Shown: positions 15,927-46,908 of the stretch, piece by piece
Numbering within the stretch: position 1 is the first letter of the stretch
Layout: each line of letters opens with the position of its first letter
NCBI GenBank assembly: GCA_900318115.1
Contig: ONJJ01000021.1
Coordinates: 8,773-72,772 of the forward strand
Length of the DNA stretch: 64,000 bases
DNA from: an uncultured Prevotellaceae bacterium
Lineage (GTDB): Bacteria; Bacteroidota; Bacteroidia; Bacteroidales; Bacteroidaceae
Direction: 5' to 3'
Notes under the pieces: model-generated
Seen by the model: only the letters and a program-made list of their open reading frames with translations
The model's database searches: none
Told to the model about the DNA's origin: nothing
Made by a program: the position numbers and the translations under genes

Positions 15927-17255
15927 TTACAAGTGCTGCAGCGCTTCGACGGGTCGCTTGCGGCAGGTTCGCCAGGCAGGGACGAGGATGCCGAGGGTGA
16001 CGACAGCGAGGAGGATAAGGTACTGGATGACACAGATGACGAGGTAGTGTATCCAGAAGATTTCCACCCAATTGCGCTCCCGTCCCGTGCCGCTCATGCT
16101 TAGGCCATCGGAGAGGTCCATGTTGATGGCGAACTGGAACCAGATGAGCTGGCCGACGATGCAGGCCAGCAGGGTCAGCAGCGCGGCCTCGCCCCATACC
16201 ATACAGAAGATGTCGCGGCGCTTGGCGCCAAAACTGCGCATGATGCCGATGTCCTCCGTGCGCTTGCGCAGCTGCAGCCAGAAAGTGCCGAGTGTGCCCA
16301 GCACCACGTTCAGCAGGAATAGGGCAAGGAGGATTCCGAGGAGGGTGTTGGTGAGGTTGTAGTCTCTGTTGCCACTCCATGACGACAGCCAATCTTTATA
16401 GGTCTGGAGAGAGTAGAGGAAGTGATTGCCGGCTTGTAGCAGAGAGGCGCTGCTTCGACCGTCGGGAAAACCGACGGGCACACTGACGGTTTGGTAGTGA
16501 TTGATGAAGGCTTCTGCATCGGCTTCGGGCTTCAGTCGAATGAGCATCTGCGGGGTTGCATACTCTTGGATTACAGGAGTCAGAATGGAATAGGCATAGC
16601 GATCATTCTGCTGCAAGCGGAAATCCTCCACGACGCCCGCGATGGTGTAGCGGCTGACGATGACCGGCCCGCCTTGCTCCTGCAGCGCACGGTCGCTGAA
16701 GTCCCATTCCACCATGCGGCGGCCCACTACTTGGTCGGTACCAAAGATGGCCTGTGCCAGGCTGCGGGTGATGACCACGCCGCCCTCCGGACATTCCTCG
16801 GAAAGTACTCTCGCCGAAGGGCTGCCCTCGATAGGCGTCAAACCTTGCGTCTCGAAGTACTGCTCATGCAGCAGGAAACCCTGCATGTAGGCTCCGCAAC
16901 GGCGAGTGGAGTCGGCCTCAGAAGCATAGGAACTGGTATGGTAGGTACCTTGGCCAATGATGTGACTGGTGAAGCCTGCATACTGAACCTCGGGCAGAGC
17001 ACGAATCTGGTCGCGCAGGGCATAGAGGGAAGCCTCACCCACGGAAGACGAATTGGGACTGAAGTCCTTGATTCCCGTCTGCCCCACCAACAAGTGCTCC
17101 TTCTCGAACTCCCCGGCGGGACGACAAAAGTATGTGTCGAAGGTGGTTACGACGAAGTGGTCAATGAAGTAGAAACTGAGGACGGTGATGAGGATAATCT
17201 CAGCAAAGACCCAGCCGTTCTGACGGCGATGGGACCAGAGGTTCTTGAGTATCAT
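15927..17255 (-). CDS. FtsX/MacB-type ABC permease, type-2 paralogue (third pair)
   Basis: FtsX block ..IGIMRSFGAKRRDIFCMVWGEAALLTLL..VPAWRTCRKRPVEALQHL. TM1 is WVFAEIILITVLSFYF. The start is set at ATG 17255, which overlaps the upstream stop as ATGA. The 86 extra codons of track ORF 15927..17513 overlap the preceding gene. Confidence 0.85.
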   Translation of the reverse strand: MILKNLWSHRRQNGWVFAEIILITVLSFYFIDHFVVTTFDTYFCRPAGEFEKEHLLVGQTGIKDFSPNSSSVGEASLYALRDQIRALPEVQYAGFTSHIIGQGTYHTSSYASEADSTRRCGAYMQGFLLHEQYFETQGLTPIEGSPSARVLSEECPEGGVVITRSLAQAIFGTDQVVGRRMVEWDFSDRALQEQGGPVIVSRYTIAGVVEDFRLQQNDRYAYSILTPVIQEYATPQMLIRLKPEADAEAFINHYQTVSVPVGFPDGRSSASLLQAGNHFLYSLQTYKDWLSSWSGNRDYNLTNTLLGILLALFLLNVVLGTLGTFWLQLRKRTEDIGIMRSFGAKRRDIFCMVWGEAALLTLLACIVGQLIWFQFAINMDLSDGLSMSGTGRERNWVEIFWIHYLVICVIQYLILLAVVTLGILVPAWRTCRKRPVEALQHL

Positions 17256-18625
17256 TTCTTCTGGTTTAGCGATTCGACAATAGGTTTGCGTAGTGAGGTC
17301 CATGACGGTATGAGGGCGACCATGAGATTCAGGACGACACAGCAGAGAAAGACGATGAGGAAGAGGGCGGGCGTTACGAACATGTTGAAATCCAATGTGA
17401 TGTCGCCTGTGAGGTTGCCTTCGCGGAGGATGAGCGCCTGGAACATCGCCGTATGGCGGACGGCCAGATAGAACAGCCATGAGAGCACCCATCCTACGAG
17501 GCCGCCGCAGCACGTCAGGACGAGGTTCTCGCGAATGACCTCGCGCAGCAGCTTGCGCCGCTTGGCGCCGAATGCTTTGCGTATGCCCATCTCTGCCCGC
17601 CGCGCTTCCATGCGGTTGCTGATGAGACCGCTGAGGTTCAGGGCTGGCAGCAGCAGAAAGATAAGCATCAGGATGGCGGGCGGCATCAGGTTCTTGGCTT
17701 TGTCGGAAGTGGACTCGTCATCGGAGTGGAAGAAACTGAAGCACACAAAGAAATGTGACTTAACATCTACCGCGAAGTGTACGGGCTCGCCTTCGGCTGA
17801 ACTCTGTGCCGCCTCGTAGCGTCGGCACAGCGGTTCCAACTCCTTCATGAAATCGTTGCGCGAATAGCCATTCTTCAGCAGCAAGCGCACGCTGAGGTTT
17901 CCTTTGTAGCTGGTAGGATTAGCCTCAGTATGGCTTAACTCTTTGCCAAGGTAAGGGGCATAGAACTCGGCATAGGAGGCGTCCATCATGGGGCTGGCAC
18001 TCTTGACGATGCCGATGATGCGGTAGGGGATGGAGTTGATGTAAAGGGTGGGCACGGGGGTGGGCTGTTGGGGATTGGGATGGGTTATCCCAATCTTCTC
18101 CAAGAACTTATCCGTCACCACACACACAGGCTCCCCGTTGCGGAACTCCTGTTCGTTGAAAGGGCGGCCCTCGAGGAACTGGAAGTCATAGAGTTGGAAG
18201 AAACGGGGATCGCAGTACAAGGCACGCAGATTGCTTTCCAGCGGAAGAGGAGCCGACGGAACCGAATCCATCCGGAAGAACTCATAGTTATTTCTAAAAA
18301 GCCCCGTTGCCACCTCCACACTCTCCAGTTTGCTGAACAATTCATCCACGGCGAGGGTGCTGCAGCCCGTGTACATCGGACCGTCCACTTCGTTGTCCTT
18401 GTATTGCAAGGCGGTGACATAAAGTGTGCGGTCGCGGTGCGTCTCCGGGTAGATATTCGCCATCTTGATGTTTAGCATGATGGCTACGACCATGGCGGAC
18501 GCTATTGCCACCGCCGTGCCTGCGATGTAGATGGCAAAGGCAATAAAGTCGGACTCTCCCCCCGCCCTCCCTATAAGGGAGGGAGCAGAATGTATTAGAC
18601 TGGATGTATTCGTATTCGTTTTCAT
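17252..18625 (-). CDS. FtsX/MacB-type ABC permease, type-1 paralogue (third pair), with repeat-encoded N-terminus
   Basis: C-terminal block ..MGIRKAFGAKRRKLLREVIRENLVLT..IPSWTSLRKPIVESLNQKK aligns with the other type-1 modules. The N-terminus MKTNTNTSSLIHSAPSLIGRAGGES is encoded by the palindromic cassette. Confidence 0.85.
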   Translation of the reverse strand: MKTNTNTSSLIHSAPSLIGRAGGESDFIAFAIYIAGTAVAIASAMVVAIMLNIKMANIYPETHRDRTLYVTALQYKDNEVDGPMYTGCSTLAVDELFSKLESVEVATGLFRNNYEFFRMDSVPSAPLPLESNLRALYCDPRFFQLYDFQFLEGRPFNEQEFRNGEPVCVVTDKFLEKIGITHPNPQQPTPVPTLYINSIPYRIIGIVKSASPMMDASYAEFYAPYLGKELSHTEANPTSYKGNLSVRLLLKNGYSRNDFMKELEPLCRRYEAAQSSAEGEPVHFAVDVKSHFFVCFSFFHSDDESTSDKAKNLMPPAILMLIFLLLPALNLSGLISNRMEARRAEMGIRKAFGAKRRKLLREVIRENLVLTCCGGLVGWVLSWLFYLAVRHTAMFQALILREGNLTGDITLDFNMFVTPALFLIVFLCCVVLNLMVALIPSWTSLRKPIVESLNQKK

Positions 18626-18706
18626 TTATGTTTATTGGCATTTAATATGTTTTCAAATCTTGAAGGTAACCACTCCCTCCCTCACAGGGAGGGCGGGGAG
18701 TGGGTC
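18551..18706. repeat. Composite palindromic cassette (two inward-facing ~36-nt GC-rich hairpin units plus 84-nt AT-rich spacer carrying a start codon)
   Basis: Units GGACTCTCCCCCCGCCCTCCCTATAAGGGAGGGAGC (18551-18586) and CACTCCCTCCCTCACAGGGAGGGCGGGGAGTGGGTC (18671-18706). ATG 18625 lies in the spacer. Alignable with 24162-24322. Confidence 0.85.
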
Positions 18707-18744
18707 TGTGGGGGGGGCTGTGGGAGGGGGTCTGTGGGAGGGGG
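18707..18744. repeat. G-run tandem tract (TGTGGG(A)GGGGG(T)C x3) between the cassette and the ATPase stop
   Basis: TGTGGGGGGGGC TGTGGGAGGGGGTC TGTGGGAGGGGGC on the + strand (C-rich on the mRNA). Confidence 0.7.
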
Positions 18745-19506
18745 CTACTGAATCTGCCGTCCATCCAAGAACTTGATAATCCTGTCCGTCTGTTCGGCTT
18801 GCTTCTCGTTGTGCGTCACCATGACTATGGTGCGGCCGTCCTCTTTATTCAGCTTATGCAGTAGCTCCATAATCTCGGCGCCCATCTTCGAGTCGAGGTT
18901 ACCTGTGGGCTCGTCGGCGAGGAGGATTTCGGGGTTACCGATGATGGCGCGGGCGATGGCTACGCGCTGACACTGACCACCAGAGAGTTGCGTTGGGCGG
19001 TGCTTCATGCGGTGCGAGAGGCCTACGCGGGCAATGACTTCCTTGGCCAGCCGCGTGCGCTCGCTGCGGCCTACGCCCCGATAGATAAGGGGCAGCATCA
19101 CGTTGTCCAGTACGTTCAGCGTCGGGATGAGGTGGAAGCTCTGGAAGACGAAGCCCAGCGTCTTGTTGCGGATCTCCGCCAGACGGTTGTCGCTCATCTT
19201 CGGGTCGATGCGCTGTCCGCACAGCTCTATCTCGCCGCTGGTGGGTTCGTCTAAGAGTCCCATGATGTTCAGCAGCGTCGACTTGCCGCAGCCCGAAGGT
19301 CCCATGATGCTGAGGAACTCGCCCCTCTTCACTTCGAGGTTCACATTTTCGAGGGCTTGTGTCTCTACTTCGTCGGTACGGTAGATCTTGTTGATGCCGG
19401 TAAGGCGGATAACAGCCTCACCCCCAACCCCTCTCCGAAAAGAGAGGGGAGTGGTTACATCTTGACTCGGTTGATTCTGGTCGTTAAAAATCTTTTCAGT
19501 GTTCAT
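18745..19506 (-). CDS. ABC transporter ATP-binding protein (MacB/LolD-like NBD)
   Basis: Walker A GPSGCGKST, signature LSGGQCQRVAIARA, Walker B ILLADEPTGNLD. The 31-residue N-terminal extension contains the repeat-encoded TTPLSFRRGVGGEA. Confidence 0.9.
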   Translation of the reverse strand: MNTEKIFNDQNQPSQDVTTPLSFRRGVGGEAVIRLTGINKIYRTDEVETQALENVNLEVKRGEFLSIMGPSGCGKSTLLNIMGLLDEPTSGEIELCGQRIDPKMSDNRLAEIRNKTLGFVFQSFHLIPTLNVLDNVMLPLIYRGVGRSERTRLAKEVIARVGLSHRMKHRPTQLSGGQCQRVAIARAIIGNPEILLADEPTGNLDSKMGAEIMELLHKLNKEDGRTIVMVTHNEKQAEQTDRIIKFLDGRQIQ

Positions 19507-19639
19507 AATTTCCTTTTATTTAGTTAATAATTCTATTCTTGAAACTAATAACTCCCCTCATAACTCCCCTCTCCTTTCGGAGAGGGGTCGGGGGTGAGGC
19601 CACTCCCCTCTCCTTTCGGAGAGGGGCGGGGGGAGAGTC
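19415..19639. repeat. Composite palindromic cassette, variant B (one unit in the ATPase 5' coding region, two tandem units upstream, AT-rich spacer with start codon)
   Basis: GCCTCACCCCCAACCCCTCTCCGAAAAGAGAGGGGAGTGG (19415-19454). ACTCCCCTCTCCTTTCGGAGAGGGGTCGGGGGTGAGGC (19563-19600). CACTCCCCTCTCCTTTCGGAGAGGGGCGGGGGGAGAGTC (19601-19639). ATG 19506 lies in the spacer. Confidence 0.85.
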
Positions 19640-19641
19640 TT

Positions 19642-22203
19642 CTACTCTTCCTTTATTGCCTCCACTATATTACTCCTGCTAATCCTCCACGCCGGTATGG
19701 CCGTAGCCACGAGCACGGTCCCTAATATAATAAGGTACACGCACGCGGAGACGACGAGGAAGTGGGTGCCGAAGCTGTCGAACCAGAAGTGGACGGCGGG
19801 ATTATGAGTGCCGTAGTCGTCGCCGAGGCCACGCGCAGCGGCAAACTGGAAGTAGATGATGCAGCCGATGACGACGCTGACGGTGGTGAGCAGCCACGCC
19901 TCGCGCAGGAAGCCGAGGAAGACGCTCCACTTCGTAGCGCCGAAGGCACGACGGATGCCGGCCTCCTCGCGACGCTGCCGCGTGTACATAAGCAGGGTGC
20001 CGAAGACGCCGAAAGCCAGGTTCGAAGCAAAGAAGGCGGCAATGAGTGAGTTTCGACGGACGCGTCGGTCTGGCCCCGTTCGTCGGTCTCTTTCTGCCGT
20101 GGCTTCCCTACTCGACTGCATACGGCGCACGAAGCAATGCTCCATTGTCAGGTCTGTCTCCATCTGCCGCTGATGACTCTGGATGAACTGCTCTGCATCC
20201 ACGCCCTCGCGCAGCCGCAGGATGATGGGTGCGTTCGGGAGATAGCCGTTGTCACATTCAAAGATACAGGAGAAGTCGCGGTCGTAACTGCTGTAGCGCA
20301 TATCTTCAACCACGGCACGGATTCGGTATTCCGTTTCTATCCATTCTACATTTCCTGTCTCTTCCTTGTAACCAAACTTCGTTCCTCCTATCTTCCTGCC
20401 TGCCACGTCGATAGTGCCGAAAAGCCCCATGGCGGCGGAACGTGTGATGATGACGGTCTCACCATCCACGCAGTCGTGGGTGAGTTCGCTGTTGGGTACG
20501 CTGGGCGTCAGCGATTGGAAACCATAGACTTCAAACATCCGGGAGTCGGGACTGAATTGCCAGTTCCAACCCGTGATGGTGTCGCCGTCGACGAAATAGC
20601 TGCGACCTGGCACCACCACGCCAAAGCCCATCGGAGTGCAGTGTGCCGTATAGGCCATCTCCACGCCATCCATCTCCTGCGCCTTCTGCAGCAGCACCTC
20701 CGCCTCCTGCATGGATTTGTACAAGTCTTTATGCTGCTCTTGTCGCGTCACGGAACGCGCTACTTCCAAATTCACAAGGCGGTCGGGGTCGTAGCCAAGG
20801 GGAAGGTGCGTGACGTAGGAGGTGATGAGTACGGGGTCTAAGGTCCACCAGAGGACGAAGGTGACGAGGATGAGTTCTGCAGCTATCCATATCTTCGAGC
20901 GCCATCCCCCACCCTCGCCCTGCTCTTCATTCATCATGCCTTCCACAATCGGCTTACGAAGGCTGAGCCACGCAGGCAAAGTTGCTGCCAATACATTCAA
21001 CGTACAGCAGATAACGAGGGCAATGAGGAAGATGGCAGGGACAAGGAACATCTCGCCGCGAAGAATAGGCACAACGGGCGACAGGCCGTAGATTCCAGAG
21101 AATATGTAGAACACCCAGTCGCGCCAGGCGTAGAGCGCCAGCCAGGCGAGACACAGCCCCAGGAGCCCGCCGATAAGCGTCAGCGTCAGGTTCTCACGTA
21201 TGACCTGCCAGAGCAGCGTGCGCCGCTTGGCACCAAAGGCTTTGCGCACCGCCATTTCCGGCAGCCGGCGTTGCATACGTGCTGCCACCATTCCGCTGAG
21301 GTTCAGCGCAGGCACCAGCAACAGGAGCAGGATGGCAGGAGCAACGTACCACGTCAGGTTAGAACCCCACGCACTGAACACCGTGCCGAGGTCTTGCCAG
21401 ACGGCGGCGTAATGCGATTTGAGTTCGGCATTCATATCCACAGGTCTGTCGCCATGCACGGCGTTGTAGCGCGATTCCACTTCCTTCAGTTCTTGCATGA
21501 AAGCATCGCGTTGACCGTACGGAACCACAAAGCTTACCTTTAACGGAATCTCGTGGAAATCAGCAGCCCAGTCTTCTACAATGCCTTCGGCTGTATAAGG
21601 GATCCACACATCCGCCACACATTCTTCTGTCAGCACGCTCGGTGTCTGTACTACGCCGATGAGGCGGTAGGGACGGTGGTTGATGATGATGGTTTGACCC
21701 ACGGCTACATTTGCACCCTTCGCCACCTCCTCCGTCACCACGACCACAGGCCGATGGGCATCGAAGTCATCCTGCGTGAACGGAGCGCCTTGAAGGAAAC
21801 GAAACTGGAAGAAACGGAAGAAGCCCGGTTCCGTCAGCTTTACGTTCACTTGGCGGTCGTGCAGGCCATCGGCCAACTTCATATAGAACTCATCGGCGCC
21901 CCAAAAATTCATCCAAGCGGTAATGCACGTAGGCGTCTGCATCGTCTGAAACAAGTCGTGGAACACATCTGGCCGTATGACTTCCACCTTATCGGATTCG
22001 TTCTTCCTGCCCATGTATTCCATATAGTAAGTCTTGCTCCTATTCACCTCCGGCGCGATGTCCGCCACCTTCACATAATAGATCTCGGTGATGAGCATCG
22101 TGAAAGCGATGGCGAGGGCGGTGCCGAGGATGTAGATAGTGGAAAATAGTTTCTCCTCGCGCATCCTGGCCAAGGCCTGACGAATATACATAAACACTTT
22201 CAT
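19642..22203 (-). CDS. Fused double FtsX/MacB-type permease (type-1 half plus type-2 half, 853 aa)
   Basis: The N-half MKVFMYIRQALARMREEKLFS... to ..LPAWLSLRKPIVEGMMNEEQ matches the whole of 24328..25689. The C-half ..IWIAAELILVTFVLWWTLDP.. to ..AIPAWRISRSNIVEAIKEE matches 22893..24230. Confidence 0.9.
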   Translation of the reverse strand: MKVFMYIRQALARMREEKLFSTIYILGTALAIAFTMLITEIYYVKVADIAPEVNRSKTYYMEYMGRKNESDKVEVIRPDVFHDLFQTMQTPTCITAWMNFWGADEFYMKLADGLHDRQVNVKLTEPGFFRFFQFRFLQGAPFTQDDFDAHRPVVVVTEEVAKGANVAVGQTIIINHRPYRLIGVVQTPSVLTEECVADVWIPYTAEGIVEDWAADFHEIPLKVSFVVPYGQRDAFMQELKEVESRYNAVHGDRPVDMNAELKSHYAAVWQDLGTVFSAWGSNLTWYVAPAILLLLLVPALNLSGMVAARMQRRLPEMAVRKAFGAKRRTLLWQVIRENLTLTLIGGLLGLCLAWLALYAWRDWVFYIFSGIYGLSPVVPILRGEMFLVPAIFLIALVICCTLNVLAATLPAWLSLRKPIVEGMMNEEQGEGGGWRSKIWIAAELILVTFVLWWTLDPVLITSYVTHLPLGYDPDRLVNLEVARSVTRQEQHKDLYKSMQEAEVLLQKAQEMDGVEMAYTAHCTPMGFGVVVPGRSYFVDGDTITGWNWQFSPDSRMFEVYGFQSLTPSVPNSELTHDCVDGETVIITRSAAMGLFGTIDVAGRKIGGTKFGYKEETGNVEWIETEYRIRAVVEDMRYSSYDRDFSCIFECDNGYLPNAPIILRLREGVDAEQFIQSHQRQMETDLTMEHCFVRRMQSSREATAERDRRTGPDRRVRRNSLIAAFFASNLAFGVFGTLLMYTRQRREEAGIRRAFGATKWSVFLGFLREAWLLTTVSVVIGCIIYFQFAAARGLGDDYGTHNPAVHFWFDSFGTHFLVVSACVYLIILGTVLVATAIPAWRISRSNIVEAIKEE

Positions 22204-22245
22204 CTTTCTATTGCGATTTTTACGAATGATTATTCACCCATTTCC

Positions 22246-22262
22246 TTGCAATTTCCGTGCCA
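22246..22262 (-). promoter_or_regulatory. Sigma-54 promoter (TGGCACGGAAATTGCA) upstream of the fused permease / ATPase / third permease pair
   Basis: Minus-strand TGGCAC-N5-TTGCA, -12 element about 45 nt upstream of ATG 22203. Confidence 0.8.
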
Positions 22263-22304
22263 GACTTGTAACTCATTGATTCTGAGCGATGCCTTAAAAG
22301 CGAC

Positions 22305-22343
22305 TGTCCATTTCTGGACACACGATGTGTTCGGAAATGGACA
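22305..22343. promoter_or_regulatory. Paired enhancer (UAS) dyads for the NtrC-type activator
   Basis: TGTCCATTTCTGGACA (22305-22320) and TGTTCGGAAATGGACA (22328-22343). The same pair recurs at the other two sigma-54 promoters. Confidence 0.7.
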
Positions 22344-22420
22344 GATGAAGAAATGAGGAACGTCTGCAGGGAACCTGAAATGATTGACCCTGCTGAGGCC
22401 TGTGGGCGGGCAGAAGAAGA

Positions 22421-22861
22421 TTTTTTCATTTTTTAACTTAGAAAAGTGCGCACCTGTCACCAACGGGCGAATCCGGTTGCTTTTCATAGCTCCATTCAGC
22501 CGGACTCATACCCAAAGACTTCCAGTCATATACATATATTCGTCCTTAATTCATCTTAAAACCACCGCGTGGTTTTTACAAATCACGATGTGGTTTTTAT
22601 AACCCACCCCTTGGTTTTGACGAACTACGGTGTGAATTGTAGATGAAAACAGGACGTTTGAAAGAAGAGGCCCAAACAGACAGAGATATCAACCTCCTCC
22701 ATCCAGTTTTTGTAGCGACAACAAAGCGCGCCACATCGTCGTTCCTCTCGAGGATTGATGTGCTTTTGAGTTGGTGAGTTTGTAAAACGACGAGTTAACA
22801 GCAAAGCGCACCTACCCATTGGTGACAGGTGCGCTCTTTTCTAAGTTAAAAAATGAAAAAA
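22421..22861. mobile_element. 441-bp non-coding element bounded by 47-bp terminal inverted repeats (MITE-like or invertible segment)
   Basis: The left arm is TTTTTTCATTTTTTAACTTAGAAAAGTGCGCACCTGTCACCAACGGG (22421-22467). The right arm (22815-22861) is its reverse complement with 2 mismatches. There is no credible ORF inside. It lies between two sigma-54 transcription units. Confidence 0.65.
22558..22640. repeat. Four dyad-symmetric sites phased at 21-22 bp inside the TIR element
   Basis: AAAACCAC-CGC-GTGGTTTT (22558), AAATCAC-GAT-GTGGTTTT (22580), AACCCA-CCCC-TTGGTTTT (22601), GAACTAC-GGT-GTGAATT (22622). Confidence 0.6.
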
Positions 22862-22892
22862 ATTTTGGCTATGTGGCAGCGCAGCCCGGTCT

Positions 22893-24230
22893 TCACTCCT
22901 CCCTCAGCGCATTGGTGATACGTGTCCTTGTGATGCGCCATGCTGGTATGGCGGTTCCGATGAGGACGGTGACTAATATAATAAGGTACACGACGGCGGA
23001 GACGATGAGGAAGTGGGACCAGAAGTGGTCGGGCCAGGTCATATCGGTGGCGAGGTCGTAGAACATGGGCATGTAGAGCGTTTCAAAGGCCGTGACGCCG
23101 TCCTCGGTGGTGGTGATGCCGCTGTAGGCATAGTTCAGGTAGATGATGACTCCGATGAGTACGGCGGCAGTGGCGAGGGCTTCGTTCCGCAACAGCATCT
23201 CGCAGAACAGACGGCGGCGGGTGGCACCAAAGGCTCGGCGTACACCACACTCTTCTGTGCGACGCTTGGCGTGGAGCCAGACGGTGCCGATGACGGCGAG
23301 GACGAGATTCAGCAGGAAGAAGAGGGCGAGGGCCAGACTGCGGTTCACCTCCTGTGTGCGGCCGTCGTCCAATTCCTGCTGCTGCAGACGGTCATCGTAG
23401 GTCATGAGCGTGCTGATGCGAGCGAAGTTAGTCTTGCCGCTACGGATGAGGTCTCGGCCGTGATCCTCCACAAAACGGCGGGCGTCAACGCCCTCGCGCA
23501 GACGAAGAACAAAGAGGCATTGGGTGGTTTGCAGGGTTCCGGGTTTGAGGATAATCGAGCGCTGGTTGAAGGGCAGCGCCTTGCGGAAATCCTCCACCAC
23601 GCCGGCCACCGTCACCTCGTAAGCCGGCTGATAGCATAACGTGAAGCGGCGGCCCACCACGTCGGCGGTGCCGAAGAGGGCAATGGCACCAGAGCGCGTG
23701 AGCACCACCTTCGGTTCCTGCCATGGGATGCGTGAGAGTTCTTCGGCAGAGGGGCTGCCAGGCAGAGGATGCAGGCCGTAGGTCTCGAAGAAGCGGGAGT
23801 CGGGAATGAACAGGACATGTGCCAGCAGGATGGTGTCGCCCTCATTGCAACATTGAAGATAGCCGGAGCTGGTCGAGCCGATGGAGGAGTAGCGGTCGTC
23901 GTAGAGGTACGCTGTCTCCACGCCTTCTACTTCCGTCAGCTGGCGCGTCAGCTGCTGGCGGCGTTTCTCGGTCATCTTATAGGGGTCTGTCAGGTCGCCA
24001 TCCTCATCGGTTTCCCATTCACCATCCACGGTACATTCTCCGTAGAGCAGGCGGCTGGTGTCATAACCTAATGGCAGGTTGCGGTAATAGAGATTGACAA
24101 CGGCAGGGTCGAAGACCACCCAGGCAACGACGGTGATGATGACGAGCTCGAGGAAAAGGACGGACTCTCCCCCCGCCCTCCCTGTTAGGGAGGGAGCGGA
24201 ATGTATTTGACTGGCTGTATTCATTTTCAT
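22893..24230 (-). CDS. FtsX/MacB-type ABC permease, type-2 paralogue (first pair), with repeat-encoded N-terminus
   Basis: FtsX block ..CGVRRAFGATRRRLFCEMLL..AIPAWRITRTRITNALREE. The first 23 codons MKMNTASQIHSAPSLTGRAGGES lie in the palindromic cassette. Confidence 0.85.
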   Translation of the reverse strand: MKMNTASQIHSAPSLTGRAGGESVLFLELVIITVVAWVVFDPAVVNLYYRNLPLGYDTSRLLYGECTVDGEWETDEDGDLTDPYKMTEKRRQQLTRQLTEVEGVETAYLYDDRYSSIGSTSSGYLQCCNEGDTILLAHVLFIPDSRFFETYGLHPLPGSPSAEELSRIPWQEPKVVLTRSGAIALFGTADVVGRRFTLCYQPAYEVTVAGVVEDFRKALPFNQRSIILKPGTLQTTQCLFVLRLREGVDARRFVEDHGRDLIRSGKTNFARISTLMTYDDRLQQQELDDGRTQEVNRSLALALFFLLNLVLAVIGTVWLHAKRRTEECGVRRAFGATRRRLFCEMLLRNEALATAAVLIGVIIYLNYAYSGITTTEDGVTAFETLYMPMFYDLATDMTWPDHFWSHFLIVSAVVYLIILVTVLIGTAIPAWRITRTRITNALREE

Positions 24231-24322
24231 TTATGTTTTATTGTTCATTTAATCTTTTTAAGTGTTTACCATCCTTGAAGGTATTTGCTCCCTCCCTAAC
24301 AGGGAGGGCGGGGGGAGAGTCC
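24162..24322. repeat. Composite palindromic cassette (two inward-facing units plus 89-nt AT-rich spacer carrying a start codon)
   Basis: GGACTCTCCCCCCGCCCTCCCTGTTAGGGAGGGAGC (24162-24197) and GCTCCCTCCCTAACAGGGAGGGCGGGGGGAGAGTCC (24287-24322). ATG 24230 lies in the spacer. Confidence 0.9.
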
Positions 24323-24327
24323 GTTTT

Positions 24328-25689
24328 TTATTGCTTTTCCATCATTGATTCTACAATAGGTTTGCGCAAACTCCACCACGCAGGCACTACGGCGGCGAGC
24401 AGGTTGAGGAGGAGGATGGCAGCGAAAGCACAGAGGAAGAGTGTGGGAGCAAAGAGCATCTCACCTTCCACGATGGGTGCTGTGGTGAGCGTGCTTCTGT
24501 CGAAGAACATGCCAAATATCTCCGTGCGCAACCCGTAGATGGCGAGCCACGATAGAGCGAGACCGATGGCACCGCCGATACTAGTCAGCAGCAGGTTCTC
24601 CCATACTACTTGATTTAAAAGTGTGCTGCGACGTGCACCGAAAGTCTTGCGAACCGCCATCTCCGCCGACCGCCGTTCCATGCGTCCCGCGACAATGCTG
24701 CAGAGGTTCAGTGCAGGAACAAAGAGCAACACGAAAAGGATGCCCGCGTAGTGCTTGAAGAGCTGCCAACCCGTGACGACGCCGAAGACGCCGTCGCGAT
24801 TCTCGGTGCGCAGCACGTGCATCGGGTGCGTTTCCAAGCCCTTGGTGAGCACCATCGTCATCTTCACGCCTTCGCCGAAGCTGAAGTTGCGAGTGGGCAT
24901 CAAATCTGGCTGAGACAGCTGGAGGCGCACGACCAGGTCATCCAGTTCCTGCTTCAGCGCCTGAAGGTGCTCACTGTCTTTCACGGTGGCGATGACGGCG
25001 AACAGGCCGGAATAGGGTGAACCTACATAGAAATCCACAAGCGTGTAGGGGATGATAATGTCGGCATAGCTGTCGGGGGTGAGCTGGCTCCCACTGCGCA
25101 CCACGCCCACCACGCGTGTCTCGGGGTTGTTCTCGATGGTTATCATGCGTCCCAAGGCGTTCTCACCCTTACCGAACAGCCGCTCGGCCAGCGCATCGGT
25201 GATGACACAGACGGCCTCCTTTGCCTCCACCTCCTGTGCTGTGAAAGGCCGACCGCTCACGAAGTCGTACTCGTAGATCTTGAAGAAGTCGGCATTGGTC
25301 CAGTTCTTGACGACGTTGATGTACTCGTCATGACCACGCACCACACAGGCGTGACTGCGGCTATCCATCTTGCCCGTTCCTGCGGCGAGTAGCGTGGGTG
25401 CGCAGTACTCGATATGAGGACTCGGAAGGAACCACTCCTCAAACGCCTTTGGGCTAAAACCCGTGTTGCCCTGTCCACCATTCTCGGCCTGAATGTTAAT
25501 ACCCTCGAAGTACACCGTCCGCGAACGGTTCACTTCGGGGTAGATGGGAGCGAGCTTGATGTAATAGACCACCGCCATCACCATCGTGAAGGCAAGGGCC
25601 ATGGCGGTACCTGCGATGTAGATACCGGAGAAGAGCTTCTCCTCGCGCATCATGGCCAGGGCCTGGCGAATGTACATAAATACTTTCAT
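24328..25689 (-). CDS. FtsX/MacB-type ABC permease, type-1 paralogue (first pair)
   Basis: Start set at ATG 25689 (MKVFMYIRQALAMMREEKLFS), matching the start of 19642..22203. The track start 25755 would run through the sigma-54 promoter. FtsX block ..MAVRKTFGARRSTLLNQVVWENLLLT..VPAWWSLRKPIVESMMEKQ. Confidence 0.85.
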   Translation of the reverse strand: MKVFMYIRQALAMMREEKLFSGIYIAGTAMALAFTMVMAVVYYIKLAPIYPEVNRSRTVYFEGINIQAENGGQGNTGFSPKAFEEWFLPSPHIEYCAPTLLAAGTGKMDSRSHACVVRGHDEYINVVKNWTNADFFKIYEYDFVSGRPFTAQEVEAKEAVCVITDALAERLFGKGENALGRMITIENNPETRVVGVVRSGSQLTPDSYADIIIPYTLVDFYVGSPYSGLFAVIATVKDSEHLQALKQELDDLVVRLQLSQPDLMPTRNFSFGEGVKMTMVLTKGLETHPMHVLRTENRDGVFGVVTGWQLFKHYAGILFVLLFVPALNLCSIVAGRMERRSAEMAVRKTFGARRSTLLNQVVWENLLLTSIGGAIGLALSWLAIYGLRTEIFGMFFDRSTLTTAPIVEGEMLFAPTLFLCAFAAILLLNLLAAVVPAWWSLRKPIVESMMEKQ

Positions 25690-25731
25690 CTTTCTATAAC
25701 GAATTATACAAATGATTATACACCCATTCCC

Positions 25732-25748
25732 TTGCAATTTCCGTGCCA
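25732..25748 (-). promoter_or_regulatory. Sigma-54 promoter (TGGCACGGAAATTGCA) upstream of the first permease pair
   Basis: Identical 16-mer to the one at 22246-22262, about 45 nt upstream of ATG 25689. Confidence 0.8.
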
Positions 25749-25791
25749 AACGCATAACTCATTGATTCTGAGCAATAGCATAAAAAACAAT

Positions 25792-25830
25792 TGTCCATTT
25801 CTGGACAATCGGAGTGTTCGGAAATGGACA
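25792..25830. promoter_or_regulatory. Paired enhancer (UAS) dyads
   Basis: TGTCCATTTCTGGACA (25792-25807) and TGTTCGGAAATGGACA (25815-25830), ending 1 nt before the kinase stop codon. Confidence 0.7.
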
Positions 25831-25831
25831 A

Positions 25832-27118
25832 TCAAGGCTTAGCGGCTGGGAAGAGGATGGTGAAACGGGTGAGGTGGTCGGTGGGGTCGGTCTGAAGGGT
25901 AAAGGTACATCCGTGTGCGGTGAGGATATCGCGGATGAGCAGGAGGCCGAGGCCCTGACCTTGGGGCTTGGTGGAGAAGAAGGGTGTGAAGAGGTGCCGT
26001 GCTGCTTCGGTGGAGATGCCACGACCGTTGTCGGTGATGGTAAGGGAAGACTCTCCCCCCGCCCTCCCTGTTAGGGAGGGAGCATAATGATTTGAAGGCA
26101 GTAACTTCTGAATAGCGACGGTAATTACTCCCTCCCTCATAGGGAGGGCGGGGGGAGAGTCCTTTATACTCTCCACGCTATTCTTAACAATATTCACCAG
26201 CACTTGCTGAAAGAGGACGGGGTCGAGGTGGACGGGGATGGCATCGTCAGTCAGGTGGAAGTCGAGACGGACGTTGGCAGCAAGGCAGAGGTTCTCGAGG
26301 AAGGGTCGACAGCCCTCGACTTCCTCGCTGAGGTCGCAGAGCTGCAGCTGCGGCGCTGGAATCTTGACGACTTCGGCGAAGCGTGTGACGAAGGAGGCCA
26401 TGGCCAAGAGCCGTTCGCGTAAAGCGGTATTGTCCAATGCGCCAACGATTCCCGCCACGCTGTTGTTGACCTCATGGGCTATCATTCGGATGACGCGCTC
26501 GTAGGCTGCTTTCTCTGCCAATCTGACCTCGGAGGTGAGGGACTCGATGAGGTAGAAAGGATGCTGATAGCCGCGGTCGGGGAACGAGAGGTGGCTGATG
26601 CGAAAGATACCAGGTTCGGCAGTCAGACGCACGGTAGTCTCGCTGCCGAGGGGCAGACGTTGCATGGCCTCGGAGATGACGGGCTTCATCATGCTGCGTG
26701 CGGCAGGATTCATGGAGGTGATGTTGCCATCGAGGTCGCATTGCACAACGCCCATGGGCGAAGCTTCGATGAGCAGGCTGAGGAAGGTGTATTGCTCTTC
26801 GAGGCTGAGGTGTTCGGTACGCAGCCGGGCAAGCAAGTCGTTGAAGGTGTGGACGATGATGTCTGTCTCGTGTTGTCCTGACGGGGCGAGGCGTGTGGTG
26901 AGGTCGAGGTCACGCACGAGTTCCATTCCGCTGATGAGGGTGTCGTAGGGCTGAAGCGTACGGCGATAGAAATATATAAGATAGATGAGTAGCAGGACGA
27001 TGAAGCACTCCGTCGTGTAGAATAGCCAAGAGTGACTCTGGAAGGTGGCGAACAGAGCCACACCCGCGAGCAGAAGAATGGCAACCACAAGAATCAGAAA
27101 AGAATACTTCAGTTTCAT
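25832..27118 (-). CDS. Sensor histidine kinase (2 TM, PAS-like, HisKA, HATPase_c) partner of the sigma-54 activator
   Basis: TM helices in MKLKYSFLILVVAILLLAGVALF.. and ..CFIVLLLIYLIYFY. H-box RMIAHEVNNS, N-box VLVNIVKNSVESI, G-boxes TDNGRGIS and GQGLGL. The ATG overlaps the upstream stop (ATGA at 27115-27118). Confidence 0.85.
   Translation of the reverse strand: MKLKYSFLILVVAILLLAGVALFATFQSHSWLFYTTECFIVLLLIYLIYFYRRTLQPYDTLISGMELVRDLDLTTRLAPSGQHETDIIVHTFNDLLARLRTEHLSLEEQYTFLSLLIEASPMGVVQCDLDGNITSMNPAARSMMKPVISEAMQRLPLGSETTVRLTAEPGIFRISHLSFPDRGYQHPFYLIESLTSEVRLAEKAAYERVIRMIAHEVNNSVAGIVGALDNTALRERLLAMASFVTRFAEVVKIPAPQLQLCDLSEEVEGCRPFLENLCLAANVRLDFHLTDDAIPVHLDPVLFQQVLVNIVKNSVESIKDSPPALPMREGVITVAIQKLLPSNHYAPSLTGRAGGESSLTITDNGRGISTEAARHLFTPFFSTKPQGQGLGLLLIRDILTAHGCTFTLQTDPTDHLTRFTILFPAAKP
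26049..26161. repeat. Inward-facing pair of palindromic units inside the histidine-kinase HATPase domain, read through in frame
   Basis: GACTCTCCCCCCGCCCTCCCTGTTAGGGAGGGAGC (26049-26083) and ACTCCCTCCCTCATAGGGAGGGCGGGGGGAGAGTC (26127-26161). 21-nt perfect terminal inverted repeat. Confidence 0.9.
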
Positions 27119-28500
27119 AGGCCGTGCTTCTCGATTTTGCGATAGAGGGCACCTCGGCTGATTCCGAGTTCCTTGGCCACGAGGGAGAGGTTTCCGGCGT
27201 GCTTCTGGATGGAGGCGGCGATGGCGGCGCGCTCGAGTTCTTCAAGGGTGGGAGATGGACCCGTCGGGGAAACCGACGGGCACACTGACTCATGGGAAGA
27301 GGGGGACAGGGACTGGCGAAAGTCGGCAGCGGTGAGTTCCTCTCCTTCTGCCATCAGCACGGTTCGCTCCACCAGGTTCTTCAGTTCGCGAATGTTGCCG
27401 GGGAGAGGGAGGGATTGGAGGAAGGAGATGGCATCCGCGGTGATGGCAATGTCGGTGGAGAGCGTGGACTGATGCAGGAAGAAATCCACAAGGATGGGGA
27501 TGTCCTCGCGGCGCTGGCGCAGGGGCGGCAGGTGGAGACTGATGAGGTTGATGCGGTAGAAGAGGTCTTCGCGGAAGGTGTGTTCCTCCACCATGGAGGG
27601 GAGATCCGCATTGGTGGCGCAGATGACACGGACATCGGTGCGGCGTGTGTGGCTGTCGCCCAGTACCTCGTAGGTCTGATCCTGAAGCACTCGGAGCAGC
27701 TTCACCTGGCTGGCAAGGTCGAGTTCTCCGATTTCGTCGAGGAAGATGGTGCCTCCCCTGGCGAGTTCGAATCGCCCTACCCTATCCTCTTTTGCATCGG
27801 TGAAGGCTCCTTTCTTATGGCCAAACATCTCGCTCTCGAACAACGACTGGGAAATACCTCCGAGGTTCACCTTCACGAAAGGTCCTTCGGCACGACGGCT
27901 CTGCCGGTGAATGGCCTCGGCAATAAGCTCCTTGCCCGTACCGCTCTCGCCCGTGATGAGGACGGGTGCATTGGTGGGAGCGATGCGGGCGATGGTGGAA
28001 TATACGGAGGCGAGGGAGGGGAGGAAGGCCCCTCTCCCCGCTCCCCCCGTGGGGGGGAGAGCTCTGGCAAAAGTTGATTCTTCACAAAGTTTTCGAGCGG
28101 AGCGAGGCTCTCCCCCTTTACGGGGGAGCGGGGAGAGGGTCCTCGCCGTTTCAATCCGATCCATGAGCACGCCGTTGTCCCACGGCTTGGTGATGAAGTC
28201 AAAGGCGCCGGCACGCATTCCCTGCACGGCAAGGTCTATGGTGCCCCAGGCTGTCATGAGGATGCAGGGAAGGTCTGGACGGAAGACCTTAACCTGCTTG
28301 AGCAGGGTGAGGCCTTCGTCGCCGGTAGTGGAATTGTCGTAGTTCATATCCATCAGAACCAATTCCACTTCCGGATGGCTTCGCACGACAGTGATGGCCT
28401 CCTTGGGGTTCTCGGCCAGTGCCACCGTGTAGTCGTTACGCTCCAGGACAAGTTTCAGCGTGAAACGGATGGTCTTATCGTCATCTACAACTAATATCAT
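27115..28500 (-). CDS. Sigma-54-dependent response regulator (receiver + AAA+ + Fis-type HTH), NtrC family
   Basis: Receiver MILVVDDDKTIRFTL..LVLMDMNY... Walker A GESGTGKE. Sigma-54 contact loop GAFTDA (GAFTGA variant). C-terminal HTH LVAKELGISRGALYRKIEKHGL. Confidence 0.9.
   Translation of the reverse strand: MILVVDDDKTIRFTLKLVLERNDYTVALAENPKEAITVVRSHPEVELVLMDMNYDNSTTGDEGLTLLKQVKVFRPDLPCILMTAWGTIDLAVQGMRAGAFDFITKPWDNGVLMDRIETARTLSPLPRKGGEPRSARKLCEESTFARALPPTGGAGRGAFLPSLASVYSTIARIAPTNAPVLITGESGTGKELIAEAIHRQSRRAEGPFVKVNLGGISQSLFESEMFGHKKGAFTDAKEDRVGRFELARGGTIFLDEIGELDLASQVKLLRVLQDQTYEVLGDSHTRRTDVRVICATNADLPSMVEEHTFREDLFYRINLISLHLPPLRQRREDIPILVDFFLHQSTLSTDIAITADAISFLQSLPLPGNIRELKNLVERTVLMAEGEELTAADFRQSLSPSSHESVCPSVSPTGPSPTLEELERAAIAASIQKHAGNLSLVAKELGISRGALYRKIEKHGL
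28027..28142. repeat. Inward-facing pair of palindromic units (variant C) inside the response-regulator linker, read through in frame
   Basis: GGCCCCTCTCCCCGCTCCCCCCGTGGGGGGGAGAGC (28027-28062) and GGCTCTCCCCCTTTACGGGGGAGCGGGGAGAGGGTCC (28105-28142). The outer 21 nt are inverted repeats (20/21). Confidence 0.85.
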
Positions 28501-34913: not shown

Positions 34914-35071
34914 CGGAAAAGTTGAAAGTTTGATGAGGAAAGAAGAAAGTTTTTGTGAAGTTCGCTTTCTTTTCTTGATATATTTTGCCTTTTGGACATC
35001 AAAATGTCATCAAATGCCAGACGTTTTTCATTTTTCACTTTCCTTTTTTCACTTTTCAGGTCCCAATTGTG

Positions 35072-35079
35072 TACCTTTG
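35072..35079 (+). promoter_or_regulatory. Candidate -7 promoter box (TACCTTTG) for mutS2
   Basis: TACCTTTG, 23 nt upstream of ATG 35102. Confidence 0.45.
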
Positions 35080-35101
35080 CAGGCGCAAAAACAAGAATAC
35101 A

Positions 35102-46761: not shown

Positions 46762-46908
46762 GGGTGGGAATGCGATCTGCATCGCGCCGCTACGACCAAG
46801 TACCCTTGCTGCGGTCAAGCCCTGGGGGATTCCGAGGGAGCTGGCCGTACAGGACATTCCCGTGGATGCTGCCTTGGGGCAGTTAGCTGCTGCTTGGATT
46901 ACAGCTTG
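46762..46908 (-). ncRNA. Candidate structured RNA, or an unusually long structured inter-tRNA spacer
   Basis: 147 nt between two co-oriented tRNAs. Helices on the minus strand: GGGAAUG/CAUUCCC enclosing CCUGUACGGCCAG/CUUGGUCGUAGCGG (with G-U pairs that would be C-A mismatches on the other strand), plus the local hairpins CUGCC-CCAA-GGCAG and GCGAU-GCAG-AUCGC. No family recognised. Confidence 0.25.

Follow-up and report, generated by a model that had tools for sequence, protein, structure and literature searches.

What are the short GC-rich palindromes that lie, mostly in frame, within the genes of an uncultured Prevotellaceae bacterium, and how did they come to be there? The question arises from a 64,000-nucleotide stretch of contig ONJJ01000021.1 (assembly GCA_900318115.1), hereafter the window, in which eleven hairpin units of ~36 nt occur. 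Few unexplained features of bacterial genomes are commoner than small palindromic repeats, and DUF559 is a widespread family of ~120-aa nucleases for which we know of no function. We propose that the units of the window serve as the terminal inverted repeats, each with its hairpin, of very small elements that are mobile or copy-maintained, i.e., a system resembling the repetitive extragenic palindromes (REPs) and their REP-associated tyrosine transposases (RAYTs), and that a DUF559 nuclease is their partner, a reading to which we give a probability of roughly 0.6. The units are dispersed across genomes, have sharp ends with no target-site duplication, are polymorphic for presence, are biased in phase and orientation, bracket a DUF559 gene with a subtype that matches the local gene, and recur beside DUF559 genes across phyla. 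As far as we can tell, the DUF559 link, the element-borne start-codon module and the conservation of the module across phyla are new; the in-frame behaviour is of a known kind, of which this is a new case.

Hairpin units and the doublets they form

All units share one layout: a C-rich tail of ~13 nt (canonically GACTCTCCCCCCG), a pyrimidine arm of 7-10 nt, a loop of 3-6 nt, the purine arm and AGY, with a head that reads R-GAC(T/C)C(T/A)CCCCC. A scan of the 64 kb for perfect hairpins with a pure-pyrimidine 5' arm returned exactly 11 GC-rich cases, all at 18.5-28.2 kb and all identical to the units placed there by the initial annotation, and the pyrimidine arm is 5' in every unit hairpin, on both strands. 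The exact 13-mer tail has six copies in the window, all confined to the unit region, and a relaxed hairpin-plus-tail scan gave 9 matches, against 0-1 in each of 20 Markov shuffles. The tail counted at up to 3 mismatches occurs 24 times in the window against 26 expected, i.e., not above chance, so that the signal is carried by exact tails and hairpins. These scans used Python hairpin-plus-tail scanners in place of a covariance model, because a MAFFT alignment of 40 units failed to align stems of differing length. Three stem subfamilies are present in the window (CCCTCCCT, CCCCTCTCC and CTCCCCCC). Their tails are related, and the ~20 stem variants of the wider family all retain complementarity; their treatment as a single family in the initial annotation is supported. 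The features of the window are as follows.

18551 to 18586, plus strand: unit forming the A-end of doublet 18551-18706, with its C-rich tail on the plus strand
18587 to 18670, minus strand: AT-rich doublet interior, with the permease ATG at 18623-18625 (minus strand) and the leader MKTNTNTSSLIHS
18671 to 18706, minus strand: B-end unit with a degenerate tail GACCCACTCCCCG, just past the stop of the ABC ATPase (open reading frame, ORF, ending at 18745)
19415 to 19454, plus strand: unit of the CCCCTCTC/GAGAGGGG subfamily, in the N-terminal leader (TTPLSFRRGVGGEA) of ABC ATPase ORF 18745-19506
19563 to 19600, minus strand: unit of the CCCCTCTCC-TTTC-GGAGAGGGG subfamily, intergenic
19601 to 19639, minus strand: tandem second unit, with the stem of 19563-19600 and the canonical tail GACTCTCCCCCCG
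24162 to 24322, minus strand: intergenic-type doublet of units 24162-24197 and 24287-24322, with 43-nt arms that are 95% complementary
26049 to 26161, minus strand: compact 113-nt doublet of units 26049-26083 and 26127-26161 with a conserved 49-nt interior
28027 to 28142, minus strand: doublet of a variant subfamily, in frame in sigma-54 response regulator ORF 27115-28500
37094 to 37111 and 37162 to 37182, plus strand: two degenerate hairpins in the MutS2 linker (ORF 34985-37660), encoding DPSRQGGE and LPSLTGEGG

The pairs of the window face inward, as had been described, with their tails outward, and their arms are 94-95% complementary (43 nt and 95% for 24155-24197/24287-24329; 34 nt and 94% for the pair at 26049/26128). 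The ~36-nt unit of the initial annotation is a real object, but it is usually one half of a doublet that has a conserved interior. For example, the interior at 18587-18670 is 87% identical over 77 nt to that of doublet 24162-24322, and unit 18551-18586 is read on the minus strand as APSLIGRAGGES within the N-terminal leader of permease ORF 17252-18625. Unit 19563-19600 is the inverted partner of 19415-19454 (38 nt, 95% complementary), the ABC ATPase start codon (19504-19506) lies between the latter and units 19563-19600 and 19601-19639, and the tandem unit 19601-19639 begins 2 nt past the stop of fused permease ORF 19642-22203. In the variant doublet, the two units read CTCCCCCC-GTG-GGGGGGAG (28027-28062) and CTCCCCC-TTTAC-GGGGGAG (28105-28142), with tails CCCCTCTCCCCG and GACCCTCTCCCCG. 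Both MutS2 hairpins exist and are degenerate and in an open frame, as was first reported, but with truncated tails and an orientation unlike that of the canonical doublet, they are only possibly members of the family, i.e., decayed relics of it. Two or three tandem copies of the tail alone occupy 18700-18745 (minus strand, CAGACCCCCTCCCA / CAGCCCCCCCCA / CAGACCCACTCCCCG), in the gap from unit 18671-18706 to the stop codon of the ABC ATPase; here the hairpin was apparently left out when the tail was duplicated.

The family extends well beyond the window. Species-representative genomes were scanned with one 21-mer, and the figures that follow are for the matches listed: at least 117 stretches with units, from ~36 Bacteroidales assemblies, which include Prevotellaceae/Bacteroidaceae metagenome-assembled genomes (MAGs) of rumen, horse and human gut and the isolate Xylanibacter brevis ATCC 19188, with at least 5 to 9 separate 8-kb unit stretches per genome on several contigs each. 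The further genomic copies by which the proposed family was to be judged are therefore present. Only 8 of the 117 loci carry a homologue of any of the window's eight proteins; we therefore rejected a tie between the family and the ABC-permease/two-component cluster, and regard the family as dispersed rather than a property of the operon in the window. The 21-mer also matched in Gemmatimonadetes, Syntrophobacterales, Polyangiaceae and Longimicrobiales, but there the hairpin is lacking, and we ascribe these matches in GC-rich genomes to chance. One complete unit, GACTCTCCCCCCG-CCCCTCCCT-AAGA-GGGAGGGG-AGT, is present in a Phycisphaeraceae MAG of the Planctomycetota (JBBDXA010000166.1).

A loose detector found 213 units in the public loci and the window, comprising 65 inward pairs and 83 unpaired units. 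Most inward pairs have spacers of 37-125 nt, the commonest length being 49 nt; the ten pairs whose spacer is exactly this long give a 113-nt element, which is the commonest doublet. The interior of this doublet is kept across unrelated loci (AGC-AGAATGaTTTGAAGGCAG ... GGTAACyGCT), and its two ends differ (...AGC-AGAATG at the A-end, ...AGC-GGTTACC at the B-end). The outer boundary is sharp at R|GAC, with random flanks beyond ~4 nt, and the terminal inverted repeat arms are 34-43 nt long and 94-95% complementary. We found a 2-nt direct repeat at the ends of 4 of 39 pairs, against 2.3 expected, and no longer target-site duplication in these pairs. Palindromic extension of the ends by at least 3 nt occurred in 24 pairs against ~9 expected, partly due to nested elements; we read the excess as only weak conservation of 1-3 extra terminal bases. 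Tandem arrays of whole doublets or of ~70-290-nt hairpin-bearing repeats are present at some loci (L036, 2681-3164; L038, 5803-6144; L196, 2869-3159; L204, 4446-5427), so that the family amplifies locally as well as disperses.

[quoted passage not shown] We consider this very improbable, and rejected a DDE-type MITE on the lack of both a target-site duplication and a transposase: the sole ORF found between the repeats encodes a 121-aa nuclease, no transposase-bearing parent IS was found, and the full-length form is only ~0.5 kb. In addition, a hairpin of its own in each repeat typifies ends recognised as single strands, not DDE ends, and viral contigs contained no exact match to the units.

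In-frame inserts and element-borne start codons

Of the units detected in the wider set, 270 lie far enough from a contig end to be placed (24 more are too close), and ~175 of these overlap ORFs: 103 are in N-terminal leaders (84 in one phase), 72 are internal, and 95 are intergenic or otherwise located. Among the 213 units of the loose detector, 73 are open with at least 60 codons on either side, and 61 of these 73 use a single phase per strand, with the peptide DSPPALPxREG read from the tail strand and (A)PSLTGRAGGES from the opposite one. This bias arises because the doublet has a single open frame, namely that beginning at the G of GAC, which stays open from end to end in 9/9 cases in one direction and 5/9 in the other. 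The window behaves in the same way. Nine of its 13 hairpins, the degenerate pair included, are in open frames as originally claimed (18551, 19415 and 24162 as leaders; 26049 and 26127 in the kinase; 28027 and 28105 in the regulator; and the two in MutS2), and the peptides originally listed are correct.

An in-frame 113-nt doublet adds ~38 residues to its host protein, and compact doublets of 113-116 nt are present in frame within unrelated, ordinary housekeeping genes. Their hosts include, by Pfam, an AcrB-family RND transporter, FeoA-FeoB, altronate dehydratase, a bacterial topoisomerase, PriA and a polyferredoxin, with PurL and Mfd recognised by eye. In the window, doublet 26049-26161 encodes DSPPALPMREGVITVAIQKLLPSNHYAPSLTGRAGGES in frame in histidine kinase ORF 25832-27118, and this 38-residue insert separates the N box of HATPase_c from its G1 box. 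Bare orthologues of the kinase read ESIG-TTQGLITLEVTVPA-TLTITDNG (P0086, P0105, P0114 and P0120; P0019 and P0075 are also bare), with many others in occupied or diverged forms, some of which carry a further nested insertion. Doublet 28027-28142 encodes TLSPLPRKGGE...ALPPTGGAGRGA in the linker between the receiver and AAA+ domains of the response regulator; this linker is highly variable among orthologues and rich in peptides of the hairpin-encoded type, and a few orthologues (P0231, P0188) lack such a segment. Presence, absence and replacement of the inserts can thus be seen at both sites, and empty sites at the DNA level were found for three other elements (L056 compared with L008/L109; L133 with L129/L144; L101 with L078). 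In four kinase orthologues that are 87-92% identical (P0002, P0003, P0005 and P0006), an extra 15 residues (EPVQAEHSVPPSWHP) lie inside the first unit of the doublet, which suggests a secondary insertion or rearrangement within the element.

Could these Pro/Ser/Gly-rich segments be native low-complexity linkers under selection as peptides, with the DNA symmetry a by-product? They do lie in loops and linkers and are kept in close orthologues. Such an origin is nevertheless scarcely credible, because bare orthologues, dispersal and identity at the DNA level all contradict it: some orthologues have no such segment; the identical nucleotide sequence is present in intergenic DNA, past stop codons and in both orientations; and positions 24286-24321 and 26049-26084 are 100% identical over 36 nt, whereas the gene flanks are only ~70% identical. 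Conservation is therefore at the nucleotide level and comes with hairpin symmetry. The resemblance to in-frame palindromic elements of Rickettsia seen by the initial annotation stands for the compact doublets; to it must be added a leader mode of insertion and a gene-bearing form.

The leader mode accounts for ~29% of units, which are element-borne N-terminal leaders and not internal inserts. Of the 270 units, 84, which share one strand and one phase, lie within 30 codons after an ATG whose ORF continues for 80 codons or more, against a single leader unit on the opposite strand. Leader units of the window are 18551, 19415 and 24162. The interior of doublet 24162-24322 contains the start codon (24228-24230) and the leader MKMNTASQIHS-APSLTGRAGGES of permease ORF 22893-24230, and gene 24328-25755 stops 6 nt upstream of this doublet. 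Two mutually non-homologous permease halves share the element-encoded leader MK(T/M)NT..S.IHS-APSL(I/T)GRAGGES.

The RNA of doublet 24162-24322 has a predicted fold of -95.8 kcal/mol (z = -12.7), with a 38-bp stem around the start codon; hairpin folding is predicted on both strands, and each end of an element has its own hairpin. Because the start codon would be enclosed by this stem, the doublet is likely to affect translational coupling or the stability of the mRNA, be this effect selected or not. Cis roles of this kind have been proposed for many REPs and for mycobacterial interspersed repetitive units (MIRUs), and the units could likewise be host-selected cis elements (mRNA stabilisers, attenuators or translational-coupling modules) spread by recombination, with DUF559 an incidental carrier or a gene regulated by them. 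Very stable hairpins that enclose a start codon, the strict orientation relative to transcription (84 against 1), frequent stop/start overlap, intergenic copies between co-directional genes, the conservation of many sites across species and, in Proteobacteria (see below), units only 3' of DUF559 are all consistent with this. We nonetheless hold it to be unlikely, since it leaves unexplained the compact doublets in AcrB, FeoB, PriA, topoisomerase, kinase and regulator genes, the presence/absence polymorphism, the recurrence of one nucleotide sequence in unrelated genes and, across phyla, beside one protein family, and the tracking of the local DUF559 gene by unit subtype. A function may have been gained after the units had spread.

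The junction between permease halves exists in three states in the window, i.e., as an ATGA stop/start overlap without an element (17252-17258), as a fused ORF, and occupied by an element (24162-24322). The splitting of a fused permease gene by the element was considered, and rejected on these three states. Fused permease 19642-22203 has EEQGEGGGW, encoded by GAGCAGGGCGAGGGTGGGGGATGG, where its two halves meet (~20900-20935, minus strand); this sequence resembles a purine arm with a G-rich tail and may be the relic of a unit now read through as a linker.

A DUF559 nuclease gene between inverted units

Rarer pairs have 340-520 nt between their units, and in six genomes a 121-aa ORF, decayed in one of them, fills this space. 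The ORF belongs to DUF559 (PF04480, E = 2e-33), i.e., it encodes a Vsr-like PD-(D/E)xK nuclease, and this full-length, gene-bearing form of ~0.5 kb has no transposase inside. The family matches the solved Neisseria protein 3HRL (E = 4e-18) and, weakly but significantly, 3R3P, the catalytic domain of the Vsr-like homing endonuclease I-Bth0305I (E = 5.7e-4). Its putative Vsr-like active-site residues (D53, D57, E68, D70, H74, E76, D83 and R86) are at least 97% conserved in 85 homologues.

Relatives of this gene were drawn from metagenome contigs by protein pattern only, and the best 80 of 360 confirmed were kept. Among these best 80, the DUF559 gene is bracketed by an inverted unit pair in 59 of the 77 loci that have enough flank, with the units 0-161 nt from its start or stop, mostly within ~70 nt, and with tail and stem variants that agree on both sides of the gene. 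At least 12 operon contexts were identified, including leuA-leuC, iorA-iorB, an efflux adaptor with an ABC ATPase, speA and an MFS transporter, and the gene is co-oriented with its neighbours in all. In 54 of 79 loci the DUF559 stop codon overlaps an ATG, with the ATG 3-30 nt downstream in 14 more, and the ORF from the overlapping ATG passes through the downstream unit into the host gene. Units elsewhere on a contig with DUF559 tend to share the subtype that flanks the gene (L197, L126, L130, L136, L184 and L196). The intergenic doublets of the window have their parts in the same order as the gene-bearing form (B-unit, spacer, ATG leader, A-unit) and, judging by this order, look like internal-deletion derivatives of it.

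After this hypothesis had been formed in Prevotellaceae, we inspected DUF559 loci in other phyla (six loci, 2.8-12 kb). In E. coli K-12 (NC_000913.3, 1351209-1351420; 7209-7420 of locus L199), the stop codon of ycjD lies inside a degenerate pyrimidine/purine hairpin, which is followed by a partial duplicate of the ycjD 3' end and then, ~170 nt downstream, by a clean unit, CCCCTCACCCTAA-CCCTCTCCCC-AGA-GGGGCGAGGGG. Across 5,426 E. coli genomes, the corresponding 61-mer repeat family has a median of 16 places in each; we believe this GC-rich repeat to be the BoxC of the older E. coli literature. In Neisseria sicca (L200), Kingella kingae (L202), Uruburuella testudinis (L204) and N. perflava (L205), a DUF559 gene lies between carA and carB, co-oriented with them, and is followed by one to four or more doublets that resemble REPINs, i.e., the inverted doublets formed by REPs. 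Elsewhere in these four loci, which span 2.8-8.4 kb, the hairpin is absent. The Neisseriaceae unit AAGCCCTCTCCCCAG-CCCTCCCC-CGTG-GGGGAGGG-AGC nearly matches the Prevotellaceae unit AAGACTCTCCCCCAG-CCCCTCCCT-GTGA-GGGAGGGG-AGC. In a Cardiobacteriaceae genome (L201), DUF559 lies between two ABC transporter genes with units downstream. All such hairpins are downstream of the DUF559 gene in 6/6 loci, with none elsewhere in these loci. The module of gene plus repeat is therefore found in Bacteroidota and in Beta- and Gammaproteobacteria, E. coli K-12 included. We tentatively suggest, at a little under even odds, that DUF559 (YcjD-family, Vsr-like) nucleases are the dedicated partners of a superfamily of C-run/G-run hairpin repeats across phyla, that they recognise tail plus hairpin, and that they drive or maintain the copying of REPIN-like doublets.

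An IS200/IS605-type Y1 transposase (RAYT) encoded elsewhere could instead move the units, which would then be true REPs and REPINs, with DUF559 as a landing site or as cargo. The anatomy is that of REPINs (a one-sided head, inverted doublets, no target-site duplication, many copies and a deletable interior), and REPs within genes have been documented (PMC3733652). Four observations make this decidedly unlikely. We found no Y1 transposase homologue in 1.3 Mb of sampled loci, a weak test made with an approximate query sequence; the unit head GAC(T/C)C... is neither GTAG nor CGTC; DUF559 occupies the position of a RAYT, being bracketed in 59 of the 77 loci of the unbiased sample; and the association of gene and unit recurs in four other lineages.

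Mechanism, known systems and neighbouring genes

In the REP/RAYT-like reading that we prefer, the full-length element would consist, in order, of a unit with its tail outward, the DUF559 gene, an ATG overlapping the stop codon, a leader of ~10 codons and the inverted unit. It would sit within an operon, co-oriented with both neighbours, and the host gene would be translated from the element's ATG through the unit. The copies of the window would be shorter forms, i.e., intergenic doublets that retain leader and ATG (18551-18706, 19415-19639 and 24162-24322) and, as a second short form, the compact ~114-nt doublets in the kinase and regulator ORFs. Copies within genes would survive only in the open phase, adding a Pro/Ser/Leu-rich and then Gly/Arg/Glu-rich loop at tolerated sites such as surface loops, linkers and N-termini. 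The DUF559 nuclease, which we infer to mobilise the units, would recognise tail plus hairpin, probably as extruded or single-stranded DNA, because each end has its own hairpin and both strands fold. It would nick at the unit, and host repair or replication would then copy doublets to new sites in trans, as has been proposed for RAYTs with REPINs.

Several points weigh against this proposal. We know of no strand-transfer activity in a 121-aa PD-(D/E)xK nuclease; without strand joining by the enzyme, the copying must fall to host repair or replication, which is the weakest step. The link between nuclease and repeat draws on position and co-variation. By an ungapped test, 18 of the 77 DUF559 loci have no flanking inverted repeat; some contigs carry a second subtype unlike the one that flanks DUF559 (L119), the window has three subtypes, and no DUF559 gene is present within its 64 kb. 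In Proteobacteria the units are only 3' of DUF559, not on both sides, which would also fit a role in the expression of the DUF559 gene itself. Many insertions are old and vertically inherited (at the kinase site, most orthologues down to 65% identity carry one), so that mobility may be low, and gene conversion could keep the copies alike.

Of the known systems, REP/REPIN-RAYT (Nunvar 2010; Bertels & Rainey 2011, PMC3116915; Di Nocera 2013, PMC3733652) is alike in its short imperfect palindrome with a one-sided conserved head, its inverted doublets with a short spacer, its many copies per genome and its lack of target-site duplication. Both systems have a small nuclease gene bracketed by inverted units, with the subtype matched to the local gene, and in both the loci are inherited vertically within lineages. 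The differences are that the enzyme is a Y1/HUH transposase there and DUF559 (Vsr-like PD-(D/E)xK) here; that the REP head is GTAG or CGTC, neither of which was found in the units, where it is GAC(T/C)C followed by a C-run; that REPs are mostly extragenic, whereas ~175 of 270 units overlap ORFs; and that here, unlike in REPs, the downstream gene receives a start codon and leader from the element. The family is therefore REPIN/RAYT-like in anatomy and genome behaviour, and differs in two defining features, the head motif and the Y1 transposase. A candidate mobilising enzyme, the RAYT, has been described only for GTAG-type REPs, with none for CGTC-type REPs, Rickettsia palindromic elements (RPEs) and many others (PMC3733652).

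The RPEs (Ogata 2000, cited in PMC3184786) are alike in being palindromes of ~100-150 nt in frame in unrelated functional genes, where they add a short peptide at tolerated sites and vary in presence among orthologues; Bordetella BRE and pneumococcal BOX, RUP and SPRITE are further small in-frame repeats with the same likeness (PMC3184786). The comparison is one of behaviour. RPEs belong to another phylum, differ in base composition and have no known sequence relation to the units, and homology would not be expected. RPEs also have no known enzyme gene, whereas the present family has a gene-bearing full-length form and a dedicated mode of insertion as an N-terminal leader. Free-standing homing endonuclease genes, such as that of I-Bth0305I (3R3P), are alike in being small nuclease genes set among or inside conserved genes, with a fold that is Vsr-like in I-Bth0305I and predicted to be so in DUF559. 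They are also polymorphic for presence and oriented with the host operon, and the two proteins have a weak but significant sequence similarity. They differ in being copied into one cognate empty allele by homologous repair, and they are not known to have dozens of short non-coding derivatives at unrelated sites or hairpin-bearing inverted repeats.

The E. coli repeat beside ycjD has the same unit architecture and nearly the same sequence, but far fewer copies and units only 3' of the gene; to our knowledge, neither in-frame inserts of this repeat nor a link with ycjD have been reported. The MIRUs, reportedly described by Supply in 1997, are said to be short repeats in one orientation between operon genes, with small ORFs that overlap the flanking stop and start codons. 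They are alike in their operon-intergenic position, single orientation and stop/start overlaps, and differ in being tandem direct repeats with no hairpin doublets, no nuclease gene and no internal in-frame insertion. Our search of the literature, which was incomplete in coverage, turned up no earlier account of the family from Prevotella or any other Bacteroidota, in agreement with the initial annotation, and nothing that ties DUF559 or ycjD to repeats.

The repeat family comes with a specific and testable candidate mobiliser, DUF559. If the cross-phylum reading is true, it would amount to a second, non-HUH solution to the REP/RAYT lifestyle, DUF559 would acquire a first function, and orphan families (the E. 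coli ycjD repeat and the Neisseria carA-carB repeats, for instance) would be accounted for. The Prevotellaceae element would further have evolved a start-codon/leader module and a single open frame for life in operons and proteins, a case of selfish DNA that lowers its cost through one open frame, flexible peptides and translational restart. Since E. coli K-12 holds the module, the link is directly testable there. For the annotation of gut and rumen Bacteroidales, many proteins carry 12- or 38-residue element inserts or element-derived N-termini and starts, and such inserts affect gene calling, orthology, structure prediction and proteomics.

The genes of the window that host the eleven units are all on the minus strand, and the response regulator is 100% identical to a protein of ENA ERZ1061541 scaffold_173. 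An Rfam search of the window matched no family on the repeat units and returned only the Bacteroidales small signal recognition particle (SRP) RNA and two tRNAs; this RNA supports the placement of the window, a metagenome contig, in the Bacteroidales. The genes, in transcription order, and this RNA are as follows.

27115 to 28500, minus strand: sigma-54 response regulator, first
25832 to 27118, minus strand: PAS/HAMP histidine kinase, second
24328 to 25755 and 22893 to 24230, minus strand: FtsX/MacB-type permease halves, third
19642 to 22203, minus strand: fused 853-aa permease, fourth
18745 to 19506, minus strand: ABC ATPase, fifth
17252 to 18625, then a gene ending at 15927, minus strand: two further permease halves, sixth
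46762 to 46868: Bacteroidales small SRP RNA (Rfam), between two tRNA genes in segment 46688-46996

Two other repeats are present near the permease operons. A 47-nt inverted repeat (22421-22467/22815-22861, 96% complementary), unrelated to the hairpin units, surrounds 347 nt in the gap that separates the two permease operons, and may represent another small element or a promoter segment capable of inversion. A 53-nt direct repeat (22291-22343/25778-25830, 83% identical) containing TGTCCATTTCTGGACA ... TTCGGAAATGGACA is found upstream of each of the two operons, and is a plausible candidate binding site for the adjacent sigma-54 response regulator.

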